The notes: generated from the sequence alone by a model not told the origin. A stretch of 57,410 nt of DNA from Patescibacteria group bacterium (GCA_041660165.1 JBAZWW010000007.1:1-57410); one strand, 5' to 3'. Shown: positions 1,142-40,645, counted from the stretch's first letter. Numbers and translations: made by a program.

Positions 1142-1768
1142 ATGGCCAAAACCATCATCTTTGACTTTGACGGGACCATGGCGAATACGCTGGAGGCTAT
1201 GATAGGCATCTATAACACGCTGGCCCCGCGCTATGGGTGCAAAGTGGTGGATGTGGCTGACCTGGAACGCCTGCGCGGGAGCAAGCCAAAGGATCTCATG
1301 CGTGAGTTTAACGTCAGTGCCTGGAAACTCCCGTTTCTTGTTTCAGCTGTTAGGCGAGGACTGAAAACCCGCATGGCCATCATGCCTGCGCAACCTGGAG
1401 TATGCGAAGCTATTAGAGAGCTTCATGGGAAGGGAGTGACGCTTGGCATCCTCACCTCAAACTCGCAAGAAAATGTTGAAACCTTTCTCCGAACAAACAA
1501 CTTGGAGAATATCTTTTCGTTTATTTCTTCCTCCCGTCATCTCTTTGGCAAACACCGGGCCTTACGTAATATCATGAAGACGCGACATCTCCTGACCTCT
1601 GAAGTGTCATATGTTGGCGATGAAATCCGCGACGTAGAGTCCGCCAAAAAAGCTGGCGTCACCAGCGTAGGCGTAACCTGGGGTTTCCAAACTAAGGGCG
1701 CTATTGAATCCGCTCGACCAAATATTCTGATCAATATCCCGTCAGAACTACTGGAACTTTCAAAATGA
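1142..1768 (+). CDS. HAD-superfamily hydrolase (phosphoglycolate-phosphatase-like)
   Basis: Motif I IIFDFDGTMANT, motif II GILTSN, motif IV VGDEIRDVESAKKAG. ATG at 1142 is preferred over the GTG at 1124. Confidence 0.8.
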   Translation: MAKTIIFDFDGTMANTLEAMIGIYNTLAPRYGCKVVDVADLERLRGSKPKDLMREFNVSAWKLPFLVSAVRRGLKTRMAIMPAQPGVCEAIRELHGKGVTLGILTSNSQENVETFLRTNNLENIFSFISSSRHLFGKHRALRNIMKTRHLLTSEVSYVGDEIRDVESAKKAGVTSVGVTWGFQTKGAIESARPNILINIPSELLELSK

Positions 1769-1833
1769 TACCGTCGAACAATGCCTCCCCCGATGTTTCT
1801 GTGGCATAATGGTGCAAACTCTTTAAATCATCT

Positions 1834-2550
1834 ATGAAAAAAGGGACTTCGCAGCAGGGGCTGATCATAGGACTGGCAGTGGTCATTGCCGTCCTGGCCA
1901 TCACGCTTGTGTACTCGGCAAATAAGAACGCGGTGGGACAAAAAACAATCAGTAACGGAACGGCTGTTAACGCACAATCATTCGCCGTTGAAAACTGGAC
2001 GTTTGACTCGGCTGAACAGAAAAAGATTGAAAAAAATATTGCCTCGCTTGGCGCCGGACAAACGATTCAATCTCAATTCGTCATTGATCCGACAGATTCA
2101 AACACGGTCTACTTTTCAACTTCAACTTCGCTCCCCGCTGGCGAACCCATGAAAACAAGCTTGGCGAGCGTTTACAAATACAATCTCAAGACGCAACAGT
2201 TTGAACGCCTGTACAAAAAAGAATTCGCCCCTGGCAGTTTCCCCGGACTGACCAAAGCCAACGGCGTTGAGGACCAAGGCGTGAGCCACTTTGTTCTGCC
2301 AGTGGTGAGAGTGATTGGCTATGACAACGGAAGACTCGCCATGCTTGTCCAAGACACTGACGATTCTCCGGGCCCTTGCTCAACCTATTTAAGCATCGCC
2401 TCGCTTGGTTCCGCCTTCCCCCGTGCCGTGGTCAGCATGAACATTGCCAAACCGTATGACGGCTTCACGCCATACACGCTTCCAGTAGCAGTGAAGGCCC
2501 AGTCTGACAAAGACCTCCAAACCTGCATGAACGAAACCTTCCCGCAATAA
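1834..2550 (+). CDS. hypothetical secreted/membrane-anchored protein (238 aa)
   Basis: N-terminal hydrophobic anchor (GLIIGLAVVIAVLAITLVY). No recognisable family. Confidence 0.55.
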   Translation: MKKGTSQQGLIIGLAVVIAVLAITLVYSANKNAVGQKTISNGTAVNAQSFAVENWTFDSAEQKKIEKNIASLGAGQTIQSQFVIDPTDSNTVYFSTSTSLPAGEPMKTSLASVYKYNLKTQQFERLYKKEFAPGSFPGLTKANGVEDQGVSHFVLPVVRVIGYDNGRLAMLVQDTDDSPGPCSTYLSIASLGSAFPRAVVSMNIAKPYDGFTPYTLPVAVKAQSDKDLQTCMNETFPQ

Positions 2551-2568
2551 ACTGAACACTAAAAAACG

Positions 2569-3279
2569 CTACTCCGCATTCACAAATACCTCGTCCACAT
2601 CATCAAGCTCATCAAGGGCGCTTAAAAATGCTTCAAGCTCCTCAAGGTGCGAAACTATAACGGTGTCTTTTGGGATGAATTCCAGGACGGCCGAGGAAAC
2701 CTGTCCGCCAGCGTGTTCAACCGCTTCTGAAAGTTGGGCAAGGTGTTTTGGCGAGCCAATAACCCTGAGGGATTCGCCGTCTTCTTCCAAATCATCTGCG
2801 CCAGCATCAATCACTATCAGATCAAATTCTTCTCTTCTGCTCGGTGTCTCTGCAAGCGTGACCACAGCCTTGCGATCGAACAAAAAAGCAAATGTCCCCG
2901 GGCTGGCCATGGTTCCGCCGTACTTGGTTACGATATTTTTCACGTCCCCGGAAGTTCGGTTTCTATTATCCGTGGTGCAAACGATCATGGTGGCTACTCG
3001 CCCCGGCGCGTACGCCTCATAAATCACCTCGGCCAGCGCTCCGCCCTCGCCCGTACCAGTACCACGAGCGATTGCTCGATCAATATTATCCTTAGGAACG
3101 TTTACGGCCTTGGCCGCTTCAATAGCTACGCGCAATCGAACATTAAAATTCGGGTCGCCCCCGCCTTCTTTGGCTGAAATCGTAATCCCGCGGGTAAACC
3201 GGCCAAAAACCTTGGCTCGCTTCTTATCCGCTTTTCCTTTGGTTATTTGGATGTTGTGCCAATGACTGTGGCGGGCCAT
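2569..3279 (-). CDS. yebC: YebC/PmpR family DNA-binding regulator
   Basis: Typical N-terminus MARHSHWHNIQITKGKADKKRAKVFGR...EGGGDPNFNVRLRVAIEAAKAVNVPKDNIDRAI. Confidence 0.9.
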   Translation of the reverse strand: MARHSHWHNIQITKGKADKKRAKVFGRFTRGITISAKEGGGDPNFNVRLRVAIEAAKAVNVPKDNIDRAIARGTGTGEGGALAEVIYEAYAPGRVATMIVCTTDNRNRTSGDVKNIVTKYGGTMASPGTFAFLFDRKAVVTLAETPSRREEFDLIVIDAGADDLEEDGESLRVIGSPKHLAQLSEAVEHAGGQVSSAVLEFIPKDTVIVSHLEELEAFLSALDELDDVDEVFVNAE

Positions 3280-3301
3280 AAGAAAATCAGGTTACACCTG
3301 A

Positions 3302-3772
3302 TTACTCTACTATCAGTGTGCCCTCCATGCCAAGCGTCCGGTGGGCACCTACGGAACAGTAGTAGGCGTATCGGCCGGGAGTGCTTGGCGCGGTAATAGT
3401 CACAGATCCACCTTCAGAAATGGACTGGCTCACGCCAAGCTCGTCAATGGTAAACACGTGGTGGCCAGTGGAACCGGAAAAAACAATCGTTATCGATTCG
3501 CCGGGCTTGGCGGTCACTGTTTTAGGATCAAAAAAGAAATCGGCGACTGTCATTTGGACTATACGGGGAGAGGAAAGGATTATAGAGGGCTCGCCCGAGG
3601 GTGATGAAGGGTTAGAAAGGGTTTGATCCACCCCGACGATAGGAGGGGTAGTATTGGTTGCCTTAGCAGACATCGGCGCGCCAGTCGCCTTGTCATTCTG
3701 CGATTGAGTCAACGCACAGCCAGCGCCAACCAGCATGACGGCAAAAACTGGGATGAGCCAGGTGGTGCGCAT
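3302..3772 (-). CDS. cupredoxin-fold (type-1 blue copper-like) lipoprotein
   Basis: Signal peptide with a lipobox-like LVGAGC. C-terminal domain carries His...Cys-x4-His-x4-Met ligands (GHHVF ... YYCSVGAHRTLGM), as in cupredoxin_1-type proteins. Confidence 0.7.
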   Translation of the reverse strand: MRTTWLIPVFAVMLVGAGCALTQSQNDKATGAPMSAKATNTTPPIVGVDQTLSNPSSPSGEPSIILSSPRIVQMTVADFFFDPKTVTAKPGESITIVFSGSTGHHVFTIDELGVSQSISEGGSVTITAPSTPGRYAYYCSVGAHRTLGMEGTLIVE

Positions 3773-3773
3773 A

Positions 3774-5186
3774 CTAGAGCGCTATGAGACTAAGGGAAAC
3801 TCCCCCGCCCGTGTTAGTGATATACGCCACGCACTCGCCTGCGGGCAGGCGCAAACGGCTGTGGAGTACTGCATGCATTCTTGGGACAAACGTTCCGCCG
3901 TGATCATCCATGACCATGGGCGTGACGCCAATATGCAACAGCGCTTGCCGAGCAGACGCCTCATCAGGCACAACCACAATGACAGGAACCCGGGGCCTAA
4001 ACATGAGGAGCGAACCAACTGCTGGGCCGAAGGATGAGGCAATGACAATCCCCCGAATAATCTCGCGCCTACTCATAACGGCGAGTGTATGAGCCAGGGC
4101 TGAGGGCAAACAATTTACGAGCGAGTCATCTTCCGGTACATCGTCAAACCGCGATTTCTCCGCCTCGCGAATAACTGAGGCCATGGCCTGCACAGTAACC
4201 GCTGGATACTTGCCAGCAGCCGACTCGGCCGAAAGCATCACCGCATCAGCATGATCGAATACCGCGTTTGCGACATCAGAAAACTCCGCCCTCGTTGCCC
4301 GCGGATTTTCCCGCATGCTCTCAAGCATCTGCGTGGCTACAATGACCGCCTTGCCGGCAAATCGGCAACGCTCGACCACATCCTTCTGCACAATCGGCAC
4401 CTCTTCCGGCGGAATCTCCACACCCAGATCTCCCCGGCCGAGCATAATTGCGTCAGACGCCTCGATTATTTCATCGAGCCTCTCCAGTGCGGCCTTGCGC
4501 TCAACCTTAGCCATCAGTAATGGCGCTCGCACCCCAAATTCTTTAGCCGTCTTTTTGATGAGCGACCTCACTCCCTCGAGTACTTCAGGACCGGTGACAA
4601 ACGACAAACAAATCCAATCAACTTCATGCTGAACACCAAAAAGAAGATCCTCACGGTCCTTAGCCGTAAATGAACTTACCTGGAGCGTACTGTCTGGAAA
4701 ATTCGCCCCCTTATGAGATTTTAAAAGTCCCGTAATTTTTACCACCGCCGTCACTGTCATCCCCCTCGCCTTCAATACTTCAACCTCCAAATATCCGTCA
4801 TCAAGCAAAATTCGATGCCCCGGCTTCACGTCCTTTCCCAATCGCTCATATGACAAAGGAATAACGCCATCAGCCGTTTTAGCATTTTTCGCCGAGGAAA
4901 AAGTAACCGTCTCACCGGCATGAAGCATGACGCCGGCACCAAGATCCCCCACCCGAATCTTTGGTCCCTGGAGGTCCTGCAGAATCGCAATAGTCTTGCC
5001 AGCTTTTCTCCCCGCCAAGCGGACTGCCTTCATGAGCGCCGAATGTTCCGGATACGTTCCGTGAGAGAAATTTAAACGCGCCACGTCCATGCCAGCAGTC
5101 ATCATGCGGTTAAGCATGGTGACAGAAGCGCTGGCCGGTCCAATGGTGCACACAATTCGTGTTCGGGCATCCTCCATACCCCCCAA
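3774..5186 (-). CDS. pyk: pyruvate kinase
   Basis: RTRIVCTIGPAS, MDVARLNFSHG, ILQDLQGPKIRVG, MLGRGDLGVEIP, VATQMLESM. Confidence 0.92.
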   Translation of the reverse strand: MGGMEDARTRIVCTIGPASASVTMLNRMMTAGMDVARLNFSHGTYPEHSALMKAVRLAGRKAGKTIAILQDLQGPKIRVGDLGAGVMLHAGETVTFSSAKNAKTADGVIPLSYERLGKDVKPGHRILLDDGYLEVEVLKARGMTVTAVVKITGLLKSHKGANFPDSTLQVSSFTAKDREDLLFGVQHEVDWICLSFVTGPEVLEGVRSLIKKTAKEFGVRAPLLMAKVERKAALERLDEIIEASDAIMLGRGDLGVEIPPEEVPIVQKDVVERCRFAGKAVIVATQMLESMRENPRATRAEFSDVANAVFDHADAVMLSAESAAGKYPAVTVQAMASVIREAEKSRFDDVPEDDSLVNCLPSALAHTLAVMSRREIIRGIVIASSFGPAVGSLLMFRPRVPVIVVVPDEASARQALLHIGVTPMVMDDHGGTFVPRMHAVLHSRLRLPAGECVAYITNTGGGVSLSLIAL

Positions 5187-34339: not shown

Positions 34340-34425
34340 GCCGGTAAGATATTCACATGTAAAAATTGTGGTCGGCGCACAAGGCGGGCCTCCCAACAAT
34401 TTTTACATGTGAATATCTTACCGGC
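34340..34425 (-). repeat. core-hairpin element A (86 nt): perfect 30-bp outer stem, core in minus orientation
   Basis: GCCGGTAAGATATTCACATGTAAAAATTGT (34340..34369) pairs perfectly with 34396..34425. The interior reads, on the minus strand, AAAAATTGTTGGGAGG-CCCGCCTTGTGCG-CCGACCACAATTTTT. Starts 3 nt after the dprA stop. Confidence 0.9.
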
Positions 34426-34432
34426 TTAGTGA

Positions 34433-34508
34433 GGCGGACAACAGGTTTTCCAAAAATTTGTTGGGAGGTACTCCGACCACAAATTTTCTGGGAAACCTGT
34501 TGTCCGCC
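34433..34508 (+). repeat. core-hairpin element B (76 nt): unrelated outer stem, 36-nt core at 34452..34487
   Basis: GGCGGACAACAGGTTTTCC-AAAAATTTGTTGGGAGGTACTCCGACCACAAATTTT-CTGGGAAACCTGTTGTCCGCC. One bulge in the outer stem. Confidence 0.9.
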
Positions 34509-34572
34509 GAACGCTCCGCTTGACTATCATGTATCATTCGGGCTAACAATTCGGCTTCCTCACCTATTTTCT

Positions 34573-36843
34573 ATGTCCACCCTCCTCATTGTTGAGTCTC
34601 CTACCAAGGCCAAAACCATTAACAAATTCTTGGGATCAAAATACAAAGTGATCTCCTCCTTTGGCCACATCAGAGATCTGCCGGAACGCGAAATGGGCGT
34701 AGACGTTAGCCATAATTTCAAACCAACATACATTGTTCCTGATGACAAAAAGGATAAAGTAAAAGCGCTCAAGGACGCAGCCAAGGACGCCACAGAAATC
34801 TACTTGGCAACTGACGAAGACCGCGAGGGAGAAGCCATCGCCTGGCACATTGCGGAAGTCCTCAAGATGAATGAGAAGACCGCCAAGCGGATAACTTTTC
34901 ATGAAATCACCAAGTCCGCCATTGAGCACGCTCTTGAACAATCCCGCCATTTGGACATGAACATGGTGGACGCTCAGCAGGCGCGCCGAATTCTGGATCG
35001 CCTTGTGGGGTATGAGCTGTCACCGCTTCTATGGAAAAAGGTTCGCAGGGGACTGTCCGCCGGCCGGGTGCAGTCCGTAGCAGTGAAACTCGTCGTAGAG
35101 CGCGAACGAGAACGCCTAGCTTTCAAAACGGACGAGTACTGGTCTATTGAGGCCGACTTTGAAAAAGGCGGGCATCTTTTCCCAAGCAAACTCATTGGTA
35201 TTGGCGAGCGAAAAATCGACAAACTCGACATCAAGAATGAGGCTGAAGCCAAAAAGATTGTTGAGGACGTGACCGGTGCCAACTTCATCGTAACCTCCGT
35301 TGAGGAAAAGGACGCGGCCAAGAAACCGCCCACGCCTCTCACCACTTCCACTCTTCAACAAGAGGCCTACAACCGCCACGGCATGAGCGCTAAGCAGACC
35401 ATGACCATTGCGCAAAAACTGTATGAGACCGGCCTCATCTCTTACATGCGTACAGACTCGCTCAATTTGAGCACGCAGTTCTTAGAGGCGGCCCAATCCT
35501 ACATTAAGAAGGAGTTCGGAAACGAGTACGCGCTTGGTTCCGTGGCGTATCACACCAACAAAAAAGGCGCCCAAGAGGCCCACGAAGCTATCCGCCCAAC
35601 GGACGTAAATACCTCGCCAGACACCGTGACTGAGAAGCTCGACCCCGGGATGGCGAAGTTGTATGACCTCATTTGGCGCCGAACCGTTGCCTCACAGATG
35701 CCGTCAGCCAAGATCCGCAGAACCGCCATTGATCTCACGGGCAATGAACACACCTTCCGCGCCAACGGATCCACAGTGGTGTTTGACGGCTACATGAAGG
35801 TTTGGCAGGCCTCAGAGGACAAACTCCTCCCCACGCTCGCCAAGGGCGATGACATTGGCAAGGCAAAGGAAATCAAGCCCGAACAGCATTTTACAGAACC
35901 GCCAGCCCGCTATTCTGACGCCTCGCTCATCAAAATTCTCGAAGAACACGGCATCGGCCGTCCATCCACGTACGCGCCTACGCTCGCCACCATTGAAAGC
36001 CGGGAATACGTGTTGCGTGATGACAACAAGCGTCTCTATCCATCAGACATCGCCATGATCGTCACAGATTTGCTGGCCGAGCATTTCCCGCAAATAGTTG
36101 ATTACGAATTCACGGCCAAGATGGAAAAACAGTTTGATGATATTTCCGAAGGCCAAGAATCCTGGACAAAAGCCATTGGCGATTTCTATACCCCGTTCCA
36201 TAAATTAATCGAGGAAAAAACCGCAGATCTCTCGCGCTCGGACGTGATGAAAGAGCGCTCGCTCGGCACTGATCCGGTAAGCGGTCTTGAGGTCATTGCC
36301 CGGAACGGTCGCTTTGGCCCGTTCGTCCAGCTTGGACCCGTGACAGATGATGTAAAGCCTAAGCGGGCATCTCTTGAAAGGCATCAGGCGCTTGAAACCA
36401 TCACCCTGGCTGATGCCATGAAGCTCTTTGTCCTCCCCCGCTCCCTTGGCCAGCATCCTTCGGGCTATGAAATCATTGCCAACACCGGACGTTTTGGCCA
36501 CTACCTCAAATGCGGAGAAATGAACATCTCGCTCCCCATGGGCTTTGACCCCAAGACCATCACCCTTGAACAGGCCATTGAACTCTGCACCACGGGCGTA
36601 GCCAAAAAGACGCAGATGATGACACCCATCGCAGAACTCGGCGAAGACCCGGCCACAAAAAGCAAAATCCTGGTCAAAGACGGGCGCTACGGACCATACA
36701 TCACGGACGGCAAAACAAACGTCACCGTGCCAAAAGACATGGATCCAAAAACGGTTACCAGGGAGCTGGCGATTACGATGCTCGAAAAGAAAAGAAAAGC
36801 GCCAAAGCGCAAATGGGGCAAGAAAAAACAAACCGAGGATTAA
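34573..36843 (+). CDS. topA: DNA topoisomerase I (zinc-ribbon-free, GRxGP(Y/F)-repeat C-terminus)
   Basis: Start MSTLLIVESPTKAKTINKFLG (Toprim). Active-site region YMRTDS. C-terminal repeats GRFGPFVQLG, GRFGHYLKCG, GRYGPYITDG, with no CxxC pairs. The ORF-track start at 34366 runs through hairpins A/B and is rejected. Confidence 0.93.
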   Translation: MSTLLIVESPTKAKTINKFLGSKYKVISSFGHIRDLPEREMGVDVSHNFKPTYIVPDDKKDKVKALKDAAKDATEIYLATDEDREGEAIAWHIAEVLKMNEKTAKRITFHEITKSAIEHALEQSRHLDMNMVDAQQARRILDRLVGYELSPLLWKKVRRGLSAGRVQSVAVKLVVERERERLAFKTDEYWSIEADFEKGGHLFPSKLIGIGERKIDKLDIKNEAEAKKIVEDVTGANFIVTSVEEKDAAKKPPTPLTTSTLQQEAYNRHGMSAKQTMTIAQKLYETGLISYMRTDSLNLSTQFLEAAQSYIKKEFGNEYALGSVAYHTNKKGAQEAHEAIRPTDVNTSPDTVTEKLDPGMAKLYDLIWRRTVASQMPSAKIRRTAIDLTGNEHTFRANGSTVVFDGYMKVWQASEDKLLPTLAKGDDIGKAKEIKPEQHFTEPPARYSDASLIKILEEHGIGRPSTYAPTLATIESREYVLRDDNKRLYPSDIAMIVTDLLAEHFPQIVDYEFTAKMEKQFDDISEGQESWTKAIGDFYTPFHKLIEEKTADLSRSDVMKERSLGTDPVSGLEVIARNGRFGPFVQLGPVTDDVKPKRASLERHQALETITLADAMKLFVLPRSLGQHPSGYEIIANTGRFGHYLKCGEMNISLPMGFDPKTITLEQAIELCTTGVAKKTQMMTPIAELGEDPATKSKILVKDGRYGPYITDGKTNVTVPKDMDPKTVTRELAITMLEKKRKAPKRKWGKKKQTED

Positions 36844-36855
36844 ATCCTCGGTTTT
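36833..36855. terminator. bidirectional hairpin CCGAGGAT-TAA-ATCCTCGG + TTTT containing both convergent stop codons
   Basis: The topA TAA (36841..36843) forms the loop. The stop of the convergent gene (36840..36842) overlaps it in the palindrome TTAA. Confidence 0.6.
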
Positions 36856-37850
36856 GCTTTTGTGTATGACTTGAGCGCCTTGCTGGAAATTTCCTCCTGC
36901 GTGTGTGCGTCAAGGAACAAGAGATGGAAGCCGTCACTCTTCCGCACAGGAATTACCGCCAGCTTGCCAACAGCTCCCTCCGTAAACCACAGGCGGAGCA
37001 AGCCATCATTCTGCACCGCCTCCTGGGCCAAGCGACGGGCAAAGAGATCAATAGAAAGTTCGTCATCCACGCCGTGATAGCCGTACAGCCGTGGATTATC
37101 CACAATAATTCTTGCCAGCGTCTGGGTAATCCCATCCCCCGGCTTCACGATCGCCTTTTCAAAGTGCTCGGGAATTAAGACCGAATGATCGCCTGTCTCC
37201 GTATTGGTCATCCTGCGCGCTAACGAGGAATCTGATTGCACGCGATCACTCTTAGAAATCTCCTTCAGCTCATGCACGGCATCATCCGCAGAAAACGCCG
37301 AAAGCGCATCATCAATCCGCAATCGGAGATCAGTAATTGTCAGCGTATCCATGGTTGGCATCGCATCCCAGAGAGCTAGCGTGGCATACGCATATGCTCG
37401 GGCGCGCAAAATTTCACCAAGCGCCAGAAGCCCGTTATACGCACGCTCCTTTTTGTTTGCGCCAACGGGAAAAACAAGCTTGCCCGCGCGCTGAGCAAAC
37501 GCCGTTGCCACCGCCTCTCGGGCTCGATCAGGGGAAACGGCGCTAGAAACAATGACCGTTTGGGCATGCAAAGCGTGGCGCCCGGCTGTCTGGCGCAATT
37601 TCGCAAAGGCCGGATTGCTCGCCCCGCCCTTCACGGCATTCTCAAGAATCTTGGCCATAGCCCGCCCGCAGTCATCGTCCGCTTTCACCCTCTGCTCCTC
37701 CGCCTCAACCCAAAGTTTTTGCAGACTTGCCATGATCCGGCTCCTGTTCGCAGGCTCCAAAGAACGCAAAGCTTCTACGCGCTCCGCCATCCGCTTTGAC
37801 CGCTCATGGAGAGCGTCGTATTCAATCGCGTGATTGTTGAGCTTCGTCAT
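36840..37850 (-). CDS. hypothetical protein (336 aa), third gene of the orphan operon
   Basis: ATG at 37850..37848 overlaps the upstream TGA (ATGA coupling). The ORF-track start at 37892 is less likely. No TM helix or signal peptide. No recognised family, apart from a weak LysM-like stretch IVKPGDGITQTLARII. Confidence 0.6.
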   Translation of the reverse strand: MTKLNNHAIEYDALHERSKRMAERVEALRSLEPANRSRIMASLQKLWVEAEEQRVKADDDCGRAMAKILENAVKGGASNPAFAKLRQTAGRHALHAQTVIVSSAVSPDRAREAVATAFAQRAGKLVFPVGANKKERAYNGLLALGEILRARAYAYATLALWDAMPTMDTLTITDLRLRIDDALSAFSADDAVHELKEISKSDRVQSDSSLARRMTNTETGDHSVLIPEHFEKAIVKPGDGITQTLARIIVDNPRLYGYHGVDDELSIDLFARRLAQEAVQNDGLLRLWFTEGAVGKLAVIPVRKSDGFHLLFLDAHTQEEISSKALKSYTKAKPRI

Positions 37851-40237
37851 ACTTTCTTTTTTGATTGAACCCAAGTACGGAGCGCACTGCATTCTTTTTC
37901 GGACAAGGTATTTGATAAATGGTTTATGATCTCCGCAGGAATTTCTATTCCTGAGGTATCCGCCGCCGCCAACAGCGCGCCGATTTCTTCAGCTTCAGTG
38001 CCAAGATCGTCGGGCTCTAACAAATCTGGTTCCCAAATAGAACTCGGCTCTCCGCGCTTCAACACATATGTCCACGCGCGCGACAACGATTCGCGCAATG
38101 ATGACCCAAGCGGAGGAGCTTTAGGATGAGGCTGGCTGATCTTCTCAAGATTCGGCGGTACCTCGCCTCCAAGCATCCCCTCAGAAGGTTCTTTGAGGTA
38201 ATGGTCGGGAACAGCATTTGGCGTCTTCCTTCCTTCTTGCTCTGCTATAAATTCATCAACATCGCCTTCAATTTCCGCTTCAACTGCAGGCCTCTCAGTG
38301 GGCATCTCCTCTACAGCCCCCTCAATCATGTCCTCACTCACAATCTCAAACAAATTATTCGCCGTTCGTACTAGCTCATTCCCCTGGCTCAAAAGAGCCT
38401 GCACGGCGGTCTCTCCCGCTGATTCTTCATACTTCTTTTTCGCCTGAGCAAGTTCCGTCAAACAATCCACAAGTGCTCCTGCAATTTTCTCATTATCAGG
38501 CTTGGGCTGATCCGCATCATCAAAAAGAGCAAAGATTCGTGTATCAAGCTGTTTCAGCTCTTCCTGATACACCTCATACGGCGTTGCCTCAGCTTCAGGA
38601 TTTTCTTCATAATCTGCATCAATGCGCGCATCCTCCAAAACCTCAATCGCCTTGATTTTCTTTTCAACTGTATCAAGCCTAACCGCAAGAGCATCCGGAT
38701 CCTTATACTTATCGGTGTTCGAGTCTTCAGCAAACTCTTCATCAAACAGCGCAATATCATCACGCAAGCGCTTGAGAAGATTCACCACTTCTCGCCTGGC
38801 CTCTGGACCATCATTAGCCATCTGCGCATAGATCCGCGCCCGCTCCTCAAAACCGCGCAGATCGTTATTCGCTTCAACGTCCGCATCAGTCGCCTCTTCA
38901 GCCTCCTCCCCAGCTTCTTCCCCTGCAATCGGCGCCATTCTTTCACTCGAGTCGTCAACAGGGGAGCGTGCCTCCGTCCGAGGTGTGGAAGCCGTCCCTA
39001 TCCGCCGTGCATACTCTCTCTCAAGAGCAGTCTGACGAGCCTCCAATTGCGCCAGCTCCGCCAGCAATGAAACAGCGTCAGCAAAATCTGCTATCCGGTA
39101 ATGGATCTCTTCGCCTTGATGACGCAATTCAGATAAACTGCGGGAAAAATCCTTATCGCGCCAGAAATCCTCCAAATCCCCGCCCTCAAGGTCTTCAATC
39201 TTTCTGCGGAGCTGTGCAATACGATTCTTGGCCTCCCGCTCAACTGCCGTTCCCTCCAAACGATTACTCGGACGTTCTTTAGGCTTCTCCTCTGTCGGTG
39301 ATTCTTTCTTCGGCTCCGGTTGTTTCTCCGTCGGCGCAGGCTTCTCTTGTTTTGGCTTCTTCTCTCTGGGCTCAGCAGGAAGGCTATCCTTCAATGCACC
39401 AAGTCCAGAAAACGGAGAATTGATAGCTGGCGCTTTCTTTTCCTTTCCTTTCGGCTGTTCTGATGGCTCAGGTTCCACGGGCGCCACCCGCTCTCTTGCT
39501 TCCGCCTCCGCAGCTCGTTGCGATCTCTCTGAATCGGCCTTGGCATTCTCACTATTTTGTCGCTCCGTCTCCCTCTGAATTCTTGCCTGATCTAATCGAG
39601 CAAAAAATCTCGGAACAGCGTTTTTACTTTTTCTCCAAATCATTTCAGCCAGAGTCTCTTTCACGCGAGTAAAATCCGCCGAATCAATCGGCGAGCGATA
39701 ATATTCATCAATTAAACTCTTCAAATTTGCCAAAACTTCCTCCGGCGTTGCCCCCAGCTCCTCCATGGCCGTTTTCTTAAAAAGCTTCGCTCTCTCTGCT
39801 GGATCAGAAATCACATCCAGCATGTCCGTGATGACCCGGACGTTCTCCTGCACCGTTGCTTCCGCAGGTAATACTGGCGTTCTGACCGGCTCAGGCTGAG
39901 GCTCTTCAGCGGGTTTCAACCGTTCTTGGAGGGCCACAGTTCCCTCCCTAAATACCTCAATTGTTTCAACAATCTCCACCGTCCGCTCGTCAGAAAAATA
40001 CTTATGATTTTCTGCAAACCAATCATCAAGCTTAGCTAAATCAATCAACAGCCGATCAGCCATTGCTAGAGCGTTCTCTGCCGAGTTCTTTGACTGAGAT
40101 AAATGAATCACCGCTTCATATCGCTCATCAATAGCCACCAGCCGGTCTTCAAATCCCCGCACAATCTTCTCACGCTCAATCACAAATTCTTCCTCTGATG
40201 GAAAAATAACGTCTTTTTTTCCCTTGTTCTTTGCCAT
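37847..40237 (-). CDS. hypothetical large acidic helical protein (796 aa) with a Pro/Glu/Lys-rich linker
   Basis: Long clean ORF, Glu/Asp-rich with predicted helical repeats. Low-complexity EPSEQPKGKEKK...KQEKPAPTEKQPEPKKESPTEEKPKERP segment (about 39230..39480). No Walker motif, TM helix or signal peptide seen. Confidence 0.65.
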   Translation of the reverse strand: MAKNKGKKDVIFPSEEEFVIEREKIVRGFEDRLVAIDERYEAVIHLSQSKNSAENALAMADRLLIDLAKLDDWFAENHKYFSDERTVEIVETIEVFREGTVALQERLKPAEEPQPEPVRTPVLPAEATVQENVRVITDMLDVISDPAERAKLFKKTAMEELGATPEEVLANLKSLIDEYYRSPIDSADFTRVKETLAEMIWRKSKNAVPRFFARLDQARIQRETERQNSENAKADSERSQRAAEAEARERVAPVEPEPSEQPKGKEKKAPAINSPFSGLGALKDSLPAEPREKKPKQEKPAPTEKQPEPKKESPTEEKPKERPSNRLEGTAVEREAKNRIAQLRRKIEDLEGGDLEDFWRDKDFSRSLSELRHQGEEIHYRIADFADAVSLLAELAQLEARQTALEREYARRIGTASTPRTEARSPVDDSSERMAPIAGEEAGEEAEEATDADVEANNDLRGFEERARIYAQMANDGPEARREVVNLLKRLRDDIALFDEEFAEDSNTDKYKDPDALAVRLDTVEKKIKAIEVLEDARIDADYEENPEAEATPYEVYQEELKQLDTRIFALFDDADQPKPDNEKIAGALVDCLTELAQAKKKYEESAGETAVQALLSQGNELVRTANNLFEIVSEDMIEGAVEEMPTERPAVEAEIEGDVDEFIAEQEGRKTPNAVPDHYLKEPSEGMLGGEVPPNLEKISQPHPKAPPLGSSLRESLSRAWTYVLKRGEPSSIWEPDLLEPDDLGTEAEEIGALLAAADTSGIEIPAEIINHLSNTLSEKECSALRTWVQSKKKV

Positions 40238-40239
40238 AC

Positions 40240-40563
40240 TTATTCTTTGGCGCCTTCAAGCTTATCAATCTCCCGCTCAATTGCATCCATAGCGTGGCTG
40301 GCTGAGGTTTGGTTGTGCGAGTGCGCAAATTGTTTGCGGAGATCTTCAGCCTTCAAGGCCAAAATAACATCCTCAGCCTCATCAAATACTTCACGGCTCA
40401 TGTGAGAAAGCAACATGTCCCGAAAACGCGCCAGCTCCTCAAGCGTCATATAAGGCACCAGCTCTGCCCAAGCACACTTCTCTTCATCCGGTAACGGGCA
40501 ATCAGAAACCAGGCGCGACAATTCCACGCCAAAATCTTTTGCCGTCTGCAGAGCATCCACCAT
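40240..40563 (-). CDS. hypothetical small helical protein (107 aa), first gene of the orphan operon
   Basis: Its stop lies 2 nt before the next start. No family recognised. Confidence 0.5.
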   Translation of the reverse strand: MVDALQTAKDFGVELSRLVSDCPLPDEEKCAWAELVPYMTLEELARFRDMLLSHMSREVFDEAEDVILALKAEDLRKQFAHSHNQTSASHAMDAIEREIDKLEGAKE

Positions 40564-40645
40564 AGCTCTCGCATTATACCGCAGAATCTCTCCCCCGCCG
40601 GGGCTTTACGGGAACAACTCCGGGCAGTATGGTAAATTTGCTCGT

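Follow-up and report, generated by a model that had tools for sequence, protein, structure and literature searches.

The question raised by the locus described here is what is encoded by an operon whose three products match no known family. The locus lies between rel and topA in a 57,410-nucleotide stretch of DNA from a Patescibacteria group bacterium (GCA_041660165.1 JBAZWW010000007.1:1-57410), which we refer to as the window; the genome to which it belongs is labelled G000. Its three minus-strand open reading frames (ORFs) encode proteins of 107, 796 and 336 amino acids (aa), from this point on P0001, P0002 and P0003. A first-pass annotation had described them as an orphan operon of three genes, with a 2-nt gap between the first two (TAA gt ATG), an ATGA stop/start overlap between the second and third, an 82-nt spacer to the divergent rel and a hairpin common with topA. 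This layout was confirmed throughout, and the view of the locus as one co-transcribed, functionally linked unit without an assignable family, with a scaffold-like large protein, is supported. The orphan status, the origin as three genes, the tie to rel and the LysM-like stretch did not hold, in view of the range of the cassette, collinearity with relatives, synteny and Pfam, respectively. What it encodes, in a single operon, is a cassette of two genes that is specific to one class of Patescibacteria (Uhrbacteria and kin), and comparison with relatives makes it highly probable that the two longer ORFs are the halves of one divided gene. The best explanation of the whole, namely that this cassette, with its split gene, gives rise to a complex serving as a hub or tether, is one we favour with moderate confidence.

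Cassette organization and the origin of the two long ORFs

When P0003 was compared with 41 related genomes, matches were found in 19, including 16 of the 18 other genomes of the genus, and most of these matches form the C-terminal end of open frames of 733-1738 aa. For instance, P0003 aligns by BLASTP to residues 396-729 of a 730-residue protein in G016 and to residues 543-900 of a 901-residue protein in G006. An all-against-all BLASTP comparison limits the sequence common to the family to a C-terminal module of ~470 aa, which runs from Gly/Ala-rich helices through a helical hairpin and an acidic linker to an alpha/beta end domain of ~110 aa; over the N-terminal 300-1300 aa, no alignment between genera is possible. 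In a 36-row alignment of the module (A5), the last ~90 residues of P0002 match the module start (the first ~100 columns) and P0003 continues collinearly, such that the P0002 tail and P0003 jointly span the whole module except helix 2. A profile of the whole module built on A5 matches the G000 locus at an E-value of 2e-101, and the module is single-copy in this genome. Because the tail of P0002 and all of P0003 align collinearly with single proteins of relatives, P0002 and P0003, which had been taken for separate genes, are read as two pieces of one ancestral gene, cut within the module and intact in relatives.

P0002 thus comprises a lineage-specific acidic helical arm of ~700 aa followed by ~90 aa of module. 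Its composition (22.1% Asp+Glu, 14.2% Lys+Arg, 6.4% Pro) and its Pro/Glu/Lys-rich linker bear out the scaffold-like character proposed for it earlier. No 19-residue Kyte-Doolittle window of P0002 reaches 1.2. Among 5.8 billion clusters the only homologue of comparable length is P0002 itself, and BLASTP against the giant proteins of relatives gave no match to their N-terminal parts at E<=0.01. In G015 the giant gene also appears as two ORFs of 413 and 469 aa (L019, G015:C1:18000-26000, 3088..4329 and 1628..3037, minus strand) with a different cut position, but masked bases (a run of N) at its junction leave this apparent second, independent split doubtful.

The second component of the cassette is the small gene. 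ORF maps of 12 loci from relatives reveal a small gene (99-146 aa) followed by one large gene (730-1731 aa), and over all relatives the cassette consists of a gene for a helical protein of ~100 aa and a gene for one giant acidic protein of 730-2170 aa. The small gene is directly upstream of the giant gene in all loci of the genus (a profile search located it in G002, G007, G001 and G386) and in 18 of 20 diverse loci. P0001, also helical, has a conserved motif around 'EEK.AWA.LVP.M.LEEL', a mean column identity of 43% when aligned with eight relatives, and 55-60% identity to the partner proteins of intact relatives; the small-partner profile (A2) matches it at E 3e-43. The G000 locus therefore combines both hallmarks of the family, a module in the giant protein that ends in the 'GDG' domain and a small gene 2 nt upstream on the same strand.

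Variation on this plan occurs. An extra coiled-coil ORF of 60-115 aa often stands between the small and giant genes in diverse loci of the class (108-115 aa in L070, L073, L077 and L082; 60-72 aa in L074, L079, L083, L084, L086 and L087), so that these lineages have a cassette of three genes. Among the longer intervening ORFs, two weakly match the small-partner profile (E 2e-4 and 2e-5). On another G000 contig (L026, G000:C8:38610-41375), a weak paralogue of the small partner (68 aa, ORF 1438..1644, minus strand, E 8.8e-7 to A2) is directly downstream of an acidic helical ORF of 332 aa (1653..2651, minus strand), and Pfam matches neither; the two may represent another pairing of an acidic helical protein with a small partner, with the gene order reversed. 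G002 likewise has a weak second small-partner match.

A profile of the end domain retrieved 128 cluster representatives at E<=1e-3 from 1.84 billion proteins (68 of them at <=1e-10), nearly all 600-1900 aa long; four with unrelated repeat domains (P0077, P0088, P0110 and P0120) are probably false members. The whole-module profile found the cassette in 68 of 401 sampled genomes of the class and in 59 of 300 genera, so 'orphan' is no longer an apt description. In a phylum-wide sample it matched 10 of 401 genomes, nine of them in that class, and the end-domain profile alone matched four of 401. A narrower profile (A3) run against a genome contig collection gave four loci, three of which are in genomes already among the relatives compared. 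In the literature on cytoskeletal, coiled-coil and unknown-function proteins of Patescibacteria and on Uhrbacteria, the matches listed, as far as those entries go, include no paper on the cassette family. The first-pass annotation had asked whether the genes always sit next to rel. The order rel, cassette, topA is found in all 11 loci of the genus, G000 included (the G002 flanks were verified by Pfam), and in none of 22 loci outside it; this neighbourhood is genus-level synteny only.

As the earlier annotation had noted, no recognisable domain is present. Searches of Pfam and NCBIfam (E<=1) returned nothing for P0001 and P0003 and only far-sub-threshold rows for P0002 (best Pfam row E 0.06, 14 bits versus a cut-off of 33), and neither PHROGs nor PADLOC gave a match to any of the three proteins at E<=0.01. 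Against PDB sequences, phmmer with P0003 yielded a single row (E 1.5), and the A2 and A5 profiles yielded chance rows (E>=0.12). An AlphaFold2 (AF2) model of P0003 from a 22-row alignment has high predicted local distance difference test scores (pLDDT) in the hairpin (residues 1-70, 75-93) and the end domain (93-96). Modelled alone (26 rows), the end domain reaches a pLDDT of 88.6 and a predicted template modelling score (pTM) of 0.77, with the order beta, two helices, long helix, three strands, helix, strand. For the whole P0003 model, Foldseek returned nothing at E<=1e-3, and VIA-align returned generic helical hairpins with Z up to 9.8, a value that is uninformative for helices. For the end domain alone, Foldseek returned nothing at E<=1e-3 from PDB or BFVD, and the best of 48,161 chains compared by VIA-align had Z 3.1, with none at Z>=5; models without a clear match typically reach Z 7-8. 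ESM Atlas offered only unnamed clusters of the candidate phyla radiation (0.77-0.85, below the meaningful level). As modelled, the end domain has no detectable structural relative, which is not proof of a new fold. With no known family or fold matched, the cassette falls outside the known kinds, and its mechanism is one we infer.

A predicted complex and its possible role

The co-fold check of the three proteins suggested in the first-pass annotation was run with P0001 (alignment A2), residues 690-796 of P0002 and P0003 (alignment A4). Three runs gave an interaction prediction score from aligned errors (ipSAE) of 0.62, 0.65 and 0.69, versus 0.00 in all three controls (two with unrelated partners and one in which P0003 was replaced by an unrelated protein). 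Agreement in contacts between the runs is 35% or more, and the partner has a pLDDT of 62 or higher. The calibration set shows the mark reached by 116 of 157 solved complexes and by two of 215 mismatched pairs, although this is a rough guide for an assembly of three chains with their own alignments. No like complex has been solved, so the prediction does not reproduce a known structure. The tightest predicted contacts join P0001 residues 66-81 to P0003 residues 54-72, and P0002 residues 754-767, the remnant of module helix 1, touch P0001. A physical complex of three parts, as predicted by these models, appears reasonably likely. In such a complex the three polypeptides would reassemble with P0001 lying along the helical hairpin of P0003 and touching the P0002 helix-1 remnant, thereby bridging both halves.

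What such a complex does can be proposed only tentatively. The assembled protein would be a cytoplasmic hub or tether, with the conserved module and the small protein as its assembly or anchoring end and the variable acidic arm as the cargo end, which would present lineage-specific binding sites. No signal peptide was seen by eye in 19 giant-protein N-termini, and a hydrophobic N-terminus occurs in three of 114 representatives, all doubtful: P0110 and P0120, which have unrelated repeat domains, and P0112, a weak match (E 1.9e-4). The only known domain fused repeatedly is FtsK_gamma (PF09397), which scores above the Pfam cut-off in five of 127 representatives, P0069 and P0075 among them (35-97 bits versus 30.6), and is always N-terminal to the module. 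Given these five arms, the nucleoid or DNA would be a plausible cargo in some lineages. A distant member, P0106 (1704 aa), carries a PP2C/SpoIIE-type phosphatase domain at residues ~437-649 of its N-terminal arm.

Besides TopA and DprA at the G000 locus, nucleoid-related neighbours are found in a number of unrelated settings outside the genus, namely HU (G028 and G033), FtsK with GyrA, FtsZ with GyrB, and UvrD with a PD-(D/E)XK nuclease. Further neighbours are a ribonucleotide reductase (RNR) with RNase HII, dTMP-synthesis genes, and Fpg with DivIC; others are Lgt, a Wzz-like gene, OmpA, LytR, a CHASE2 cyclase and translation factors.

An alternative places the protein in the envelope. The Gly/Ala-rich helices would be membrane segments, the end domain would lie outside and bind the wall in the manner of LysM, and the acidic arm would stay in the cytoplasm, as an inverted analogue of the HubP/FimV or TolA/TonB types. 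We consider this unlikely. A 19-residue Kyte-Doolittle window of at least 1.6 is reached in 31 of 114 representatives, mostly in Gly/Ala-rich helices such as 'IGGGIVAGIAGSAVLASVV', but the module helices of most members carry mid-helix Lys or Arg and stay below that value, and the G000 proteins have neither a hydrophobic segment nor a signal peptide, yet are under purifying selection. In the co-fold prediction the small protein, which lacks an export signal, docks on helix 1 and on the hairpin after it, an arrangement that implies a single compartment. Wzz-like, Lgt, OmpA and LytR neighbours in some contexts would suit an envelope role, and the Pro/Glu/Lys-rich spacer recalls TonB. However, P0002 has no N-terminal hydrophobic segment, no TonB_C or TolA row was found in Pfam for the G000 proteins, and TonB and TolA chains were absent from the rows listed for the end domain in the fold search, an absence that is not decisive on its own.

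The LysM element of this alternative has its own history, since a weak LysM-like stretch had been claimed for the 336-aa protein. The end domain does open with a beta-turn-helix pattern, 'V..GDG(I/V)..L.R.I', in the order beta-alpha-alpha-beta, and the wider consensus 'V.(K/S)GDG(I/V)..(L/I)..R.I' is reminiscent of the opening strand and helix in LysM (PF01476) and OapA-type domains. The likeness is one of sequence pattern at the start of the domain; the second helix is about twice as long as that of LysM, and three more strands and a helix follow. Two LysM-bearing peptidases, 3slu_B and 2gu1_A, are among the weak structural rows (both Z 2.5, root-mean-square deviation 4.3, with 63 and 71 residues aligned), values within the noise of a search whose best Z was given above. 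In another region of its sequence, P0073 matches LysM_OapA just below threshold (21.8 bits versus a cut-off of 22.3). Nevertheless, Pfam gave no LysM match for P0003 (E<=1), 17 relatives (E<=0.1) or 127 representatives (E<=1e-3 or 1e-4), and no LysM or TonB_C/TolA match in the ~145 family proteins scanned.

To return to the cytoplasmic hub or tether, several points weigh against it and against the account as a whole. About half of 16 independent contexts have no DNA-related neighbour, and the link to such neighbours, counted without a background control, is a hint only; the functional proposal draws on composition, five fusions among 127 proteins and these uncontrolled neighbourhoods. Membrane insertion may occur in part of the family, which would place the end domain outside the cell. 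The co-fold score is the model's own confidence, obtained on helical proteins, and pLDDT of the non-partner chains is 44-66; the helical middle of P0003 is poorly modelled (AF2, pLDDT 32-59). Finally, module helix 1 of this lineage has lost its hydrophobic character and turned acidic, and ~25 residues that include the helix 'N.AL…G..LR.PAYG..L.ER' (helix 2) are deleted, so the G000 lineage may be unrepresentative of the family.

The closest comparison is with the polar hub and tether proteins HubP/FimV/TspA, PopZ and DivIVA-RacA, which likewise combine a long, very acidic, Pro-rich and partly low-complexity region with a small folded end, and for which an organiser role holding other components, in some cases the chromosome, parallels that proposed here. 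HubP/FimV begins with a LysM and ends in a conserved FimV peptide, with one transmembrane helix and an acidic repeat region between them. The cassette likewise couples a short domain showing a LysM-like pattern to a large acidic region, but in reversed order; no LysM or FimV-related row was found in Pfam or NCBIfam, and the G000 proteins have no clear transmembrane segment. None of these hub proteins matches the cassette in sequence or fold, and the cassette is set apart from them by its obligatory small partner gene, its ~470-aa module and its restriction to one class. With FtsK/SpoIIIE the family shares a bona fide gamma domain, the DNA-recognising winged helix, in the N-terminal arm of the five fused members, but this domain is absent from P0001-P0003, and no scanned member has the FtsK_SpoIIIE motor or the 4TM region. 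What the fusion hints at is a cargo, not that the family belongs with FtsK.

Selection on the pieces and the junction between them

An independent metagenome contig of 2954 bp (L023) encodes the end of the 5' piece, at 75% identity to that of the window, and a 3' piece of 329 aa, at 80% identity, with the same A-run, the same heptamer, the same ATGA overlap and the same convergent topA. Comparison of G000 with L023 by the Nei-Gojobori method gave dN/dS 0.138 for the 3' piece (329 codons, dS 0.94) and 0.089 for the tail of the 5' piece (189 codons, dS 1.63), with 0.017 for topA as a control (465 codons, dS 0.84). Judged by these ratios, both pieces are kept under purifying selection. Both decay and assembly error are unlikely because L023 has the same junction and dN/dS is low. 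Two assemblies also carry the locus with zero differences; since this DNA may itself come from one of them, that agreement does not count as independent support.

The 796-aa frame ends …TCA AAA AAG AAA GTA TGA, and the likely cause of the cut is the loss of one base in the A-run. Translation of the two pieces is probably coupled through the ATGA overlap, and coupled reinitiation at this site is our default reading. The sequence also invites comparison with dnaX of E. coli, in which -1 slippage at the A_AAA_AAG register yields tau and gamma. A slip of -1 here would read GAA AGT and then the ATG ACG AAG of the 336-aa ORF, which would give a product of ~1130 aa collinear with intact relatives, beside the 796-aa form. 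That such frameshifting is programmed we regard as improbable. The heptamer is in slippery register and no stop codon interrupts the -1 frame up to and including the ATG of the 336-aa ORF, but an A-run is the expected birthplace of a one-base loss, so the slippery look needs no selection. Heptamer and register are kept in L023 although nearby synonymous divergence is near saturation; crude ORF calls of G000 contain that heptamer in register 63 times, which shows no avoidance. In G000 an RNA structure starts shortly after it (-44 kcal/mol, z -2.96, none of 200 shuffles as stable), but the fold is not significant in L023 (z -0.81). Synonymous change is suppressed over the first 45 codons of the 336-aa ORF, where synonymous divergence (pS) between G000 and L023 is 0.21-0.27 versus ~0.6-0.8 elsewhere, and 28 of 33 identical-residue codons are unchanged versus 134 of 223 in the remainder. 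A second low-pS patch (0.17-0.36), however, is distant from the junction, at codons 238-282 of P0003 (37004-37138), within the end domain. The genome encodes tRNA-Lys(CUU) besides tRNA-Lys(UUU), and in E. coli tRNA-Lys(CUU) reduces slippage at AAG. For coupled translation, the ATGA overlap and the start codon within it are enough.

In sum the site resembles dnaX-type sites and ATGA split genes in that its pieces are collinear with an intact homologue, in the 4-nt overlap, in the in-register heptamer and in the downstream RNA structure; it is unlike dnaX-type sites in the presence of tRNA-Lys(CUU) and in being explicable as the scar of an A-run deletion, and frameshifting here is a prediction from sequence. 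More doubtful still is the fullest version of this idea, a class-specific hub or tether machine that would consist of a giant acidic arm, a ~470-aa assembly module with an end domain of novel fold and a small clamp protein, and would derive in this species from a split gene whose halves would be partly rejoined by a conserved dnaX-like -1 frameshift, with split and fused forms at a set ratio.

Could the giant gene instead have been inactivated by the frameshift, leaving ORFs that are remnants on their way to loss? The cut does fall inside the conserved module, the ~700 N-terminal residues have no homologue, and the acidic helix 1 and missing helix 2 could be taken for decay of the hydrophobic helices. 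This is very improbable, given that both pieces are intact in two lineages at dS ~0.9-1.6 with dN/dS 0.09-0.14, that the stop/start overlap is conserved in L023, that the partner gene is retained at the identity to intact relatives given above, and that the end domain is the best-conserved part, with nonsynonymous divergence (pN) of 0.00-0.05.

A mobile, defence or toxin-type module inserted between rel and topA might be suspected from the lack of a known family match, the fast evolution of the large protein and a cassette site that differs between families, but this is hardly credible with PADLOC and PHROGs blank for the three proteins and five relatives (except for the FtsK-gamma part of P0069), no integrase or transposase among 107 neighbour genes, a G+C content of 0.50-0.53 that matches the remaining window, a single copy of the module and stable synteny within the genus.

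Layout of the locus and its meaning

Table 1. Features of the locus, with positions counted from the first nucleotide of the window
Feature	Position	Strand	Details and basis
P0001, small partner gene	40563..40240	minus	107 aa; ORF call
P0002, 5' piece of the probable split giant gene	40237..37847	minus	796 aa; ORF call
P0003, 3' piece of the probable split giant gene	37850..36840	minus	336 aa; start is the ATG within ATGA; ORF call
Pro/Glu/Lys-rich low-complexity linker	39233..39481	minus	P0002 residues ~253-335; translation, composition
Module start on the P0002 tail	37850..38116	minus	P0002 residues ~708-796; holds 'LSRAWTYVLKRGE' motif and helix-1 remnant (residues 754-767)
P0003 parts as modelled	36840..37850	minus	Helical hairpin (residues 1-75), poorly modelled helical middle, C-terminal alpha/beta domain; AF2
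Conserved C-terminal domain	36843..37181	minus	P0003 residues ~224-336; starts 'V.PGDGITQ.LAR.I'; most conserved family part
Split junction	37847..37862	minus	In-register A_AAA_AAG (37862-37856), three further codons, ATGA (37850-37847); sequence
Predicted RNA structure and lowered synonymous divergence	37736..37855	minus	Just 3' of the junction; fold energy, pS
Divergent spacer to rel	40564..40645		82 nt; rel start 40646, opposite strand; sequence
Bidirectional terminator-like hairpin common to convergent topA	36830..36854		11-bp stem, T-rich tails on both strands

The proteins encoded by the flanking genes, Rel, TopA, DprA, ParB and ParA, were identified by Pfam. A consensus scan requiring both hexamers found no promoter in the rel spacer. 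A TATAAT lies on the minus strand at 40578-40573, 9 nt from the ATG of P0001, without a recognisable -35; the mRNA may be leaderless or nearly so for the P0001 gene. At the other end, the hairpin spans the stop codons of both topA and P0003. The mechanically called topA ORF opens at a TTG 69 codons upstream of the Toprim domain; the extension (34366-34572) looks non-coding, and the true start is probably the ATG at 34573. ARAGORN found 45 tRNAs in the G000 genome, with tRNA-Ile(UAU) present and tRNA-Ile(GAU) not found; the latter may be within an unassembled rRNA operon.

About half of the genes of ultra-small Patescibacteria have no assigned function, and to our knowledge these bacteria lack most known cell-organising proteins. 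Against this background, a class-wide cassette, single-copy and clear in architecture, whose predicted complex has three parts and whose end domain folds confidently without a structural neighbour, is a concrete target to express, solve and localise. The natural split, which selection has maintained, indicates a position at which the module can be divided, and makes this uncultivated lineage a place to examine coupled translation or frameshifting. A possible connection between the nucleoid and the attachment site of the module is suggested by the recurrent FtsK-gamma fusions; if true, this would bear on how DNA is organised or segregated in these bacteria.

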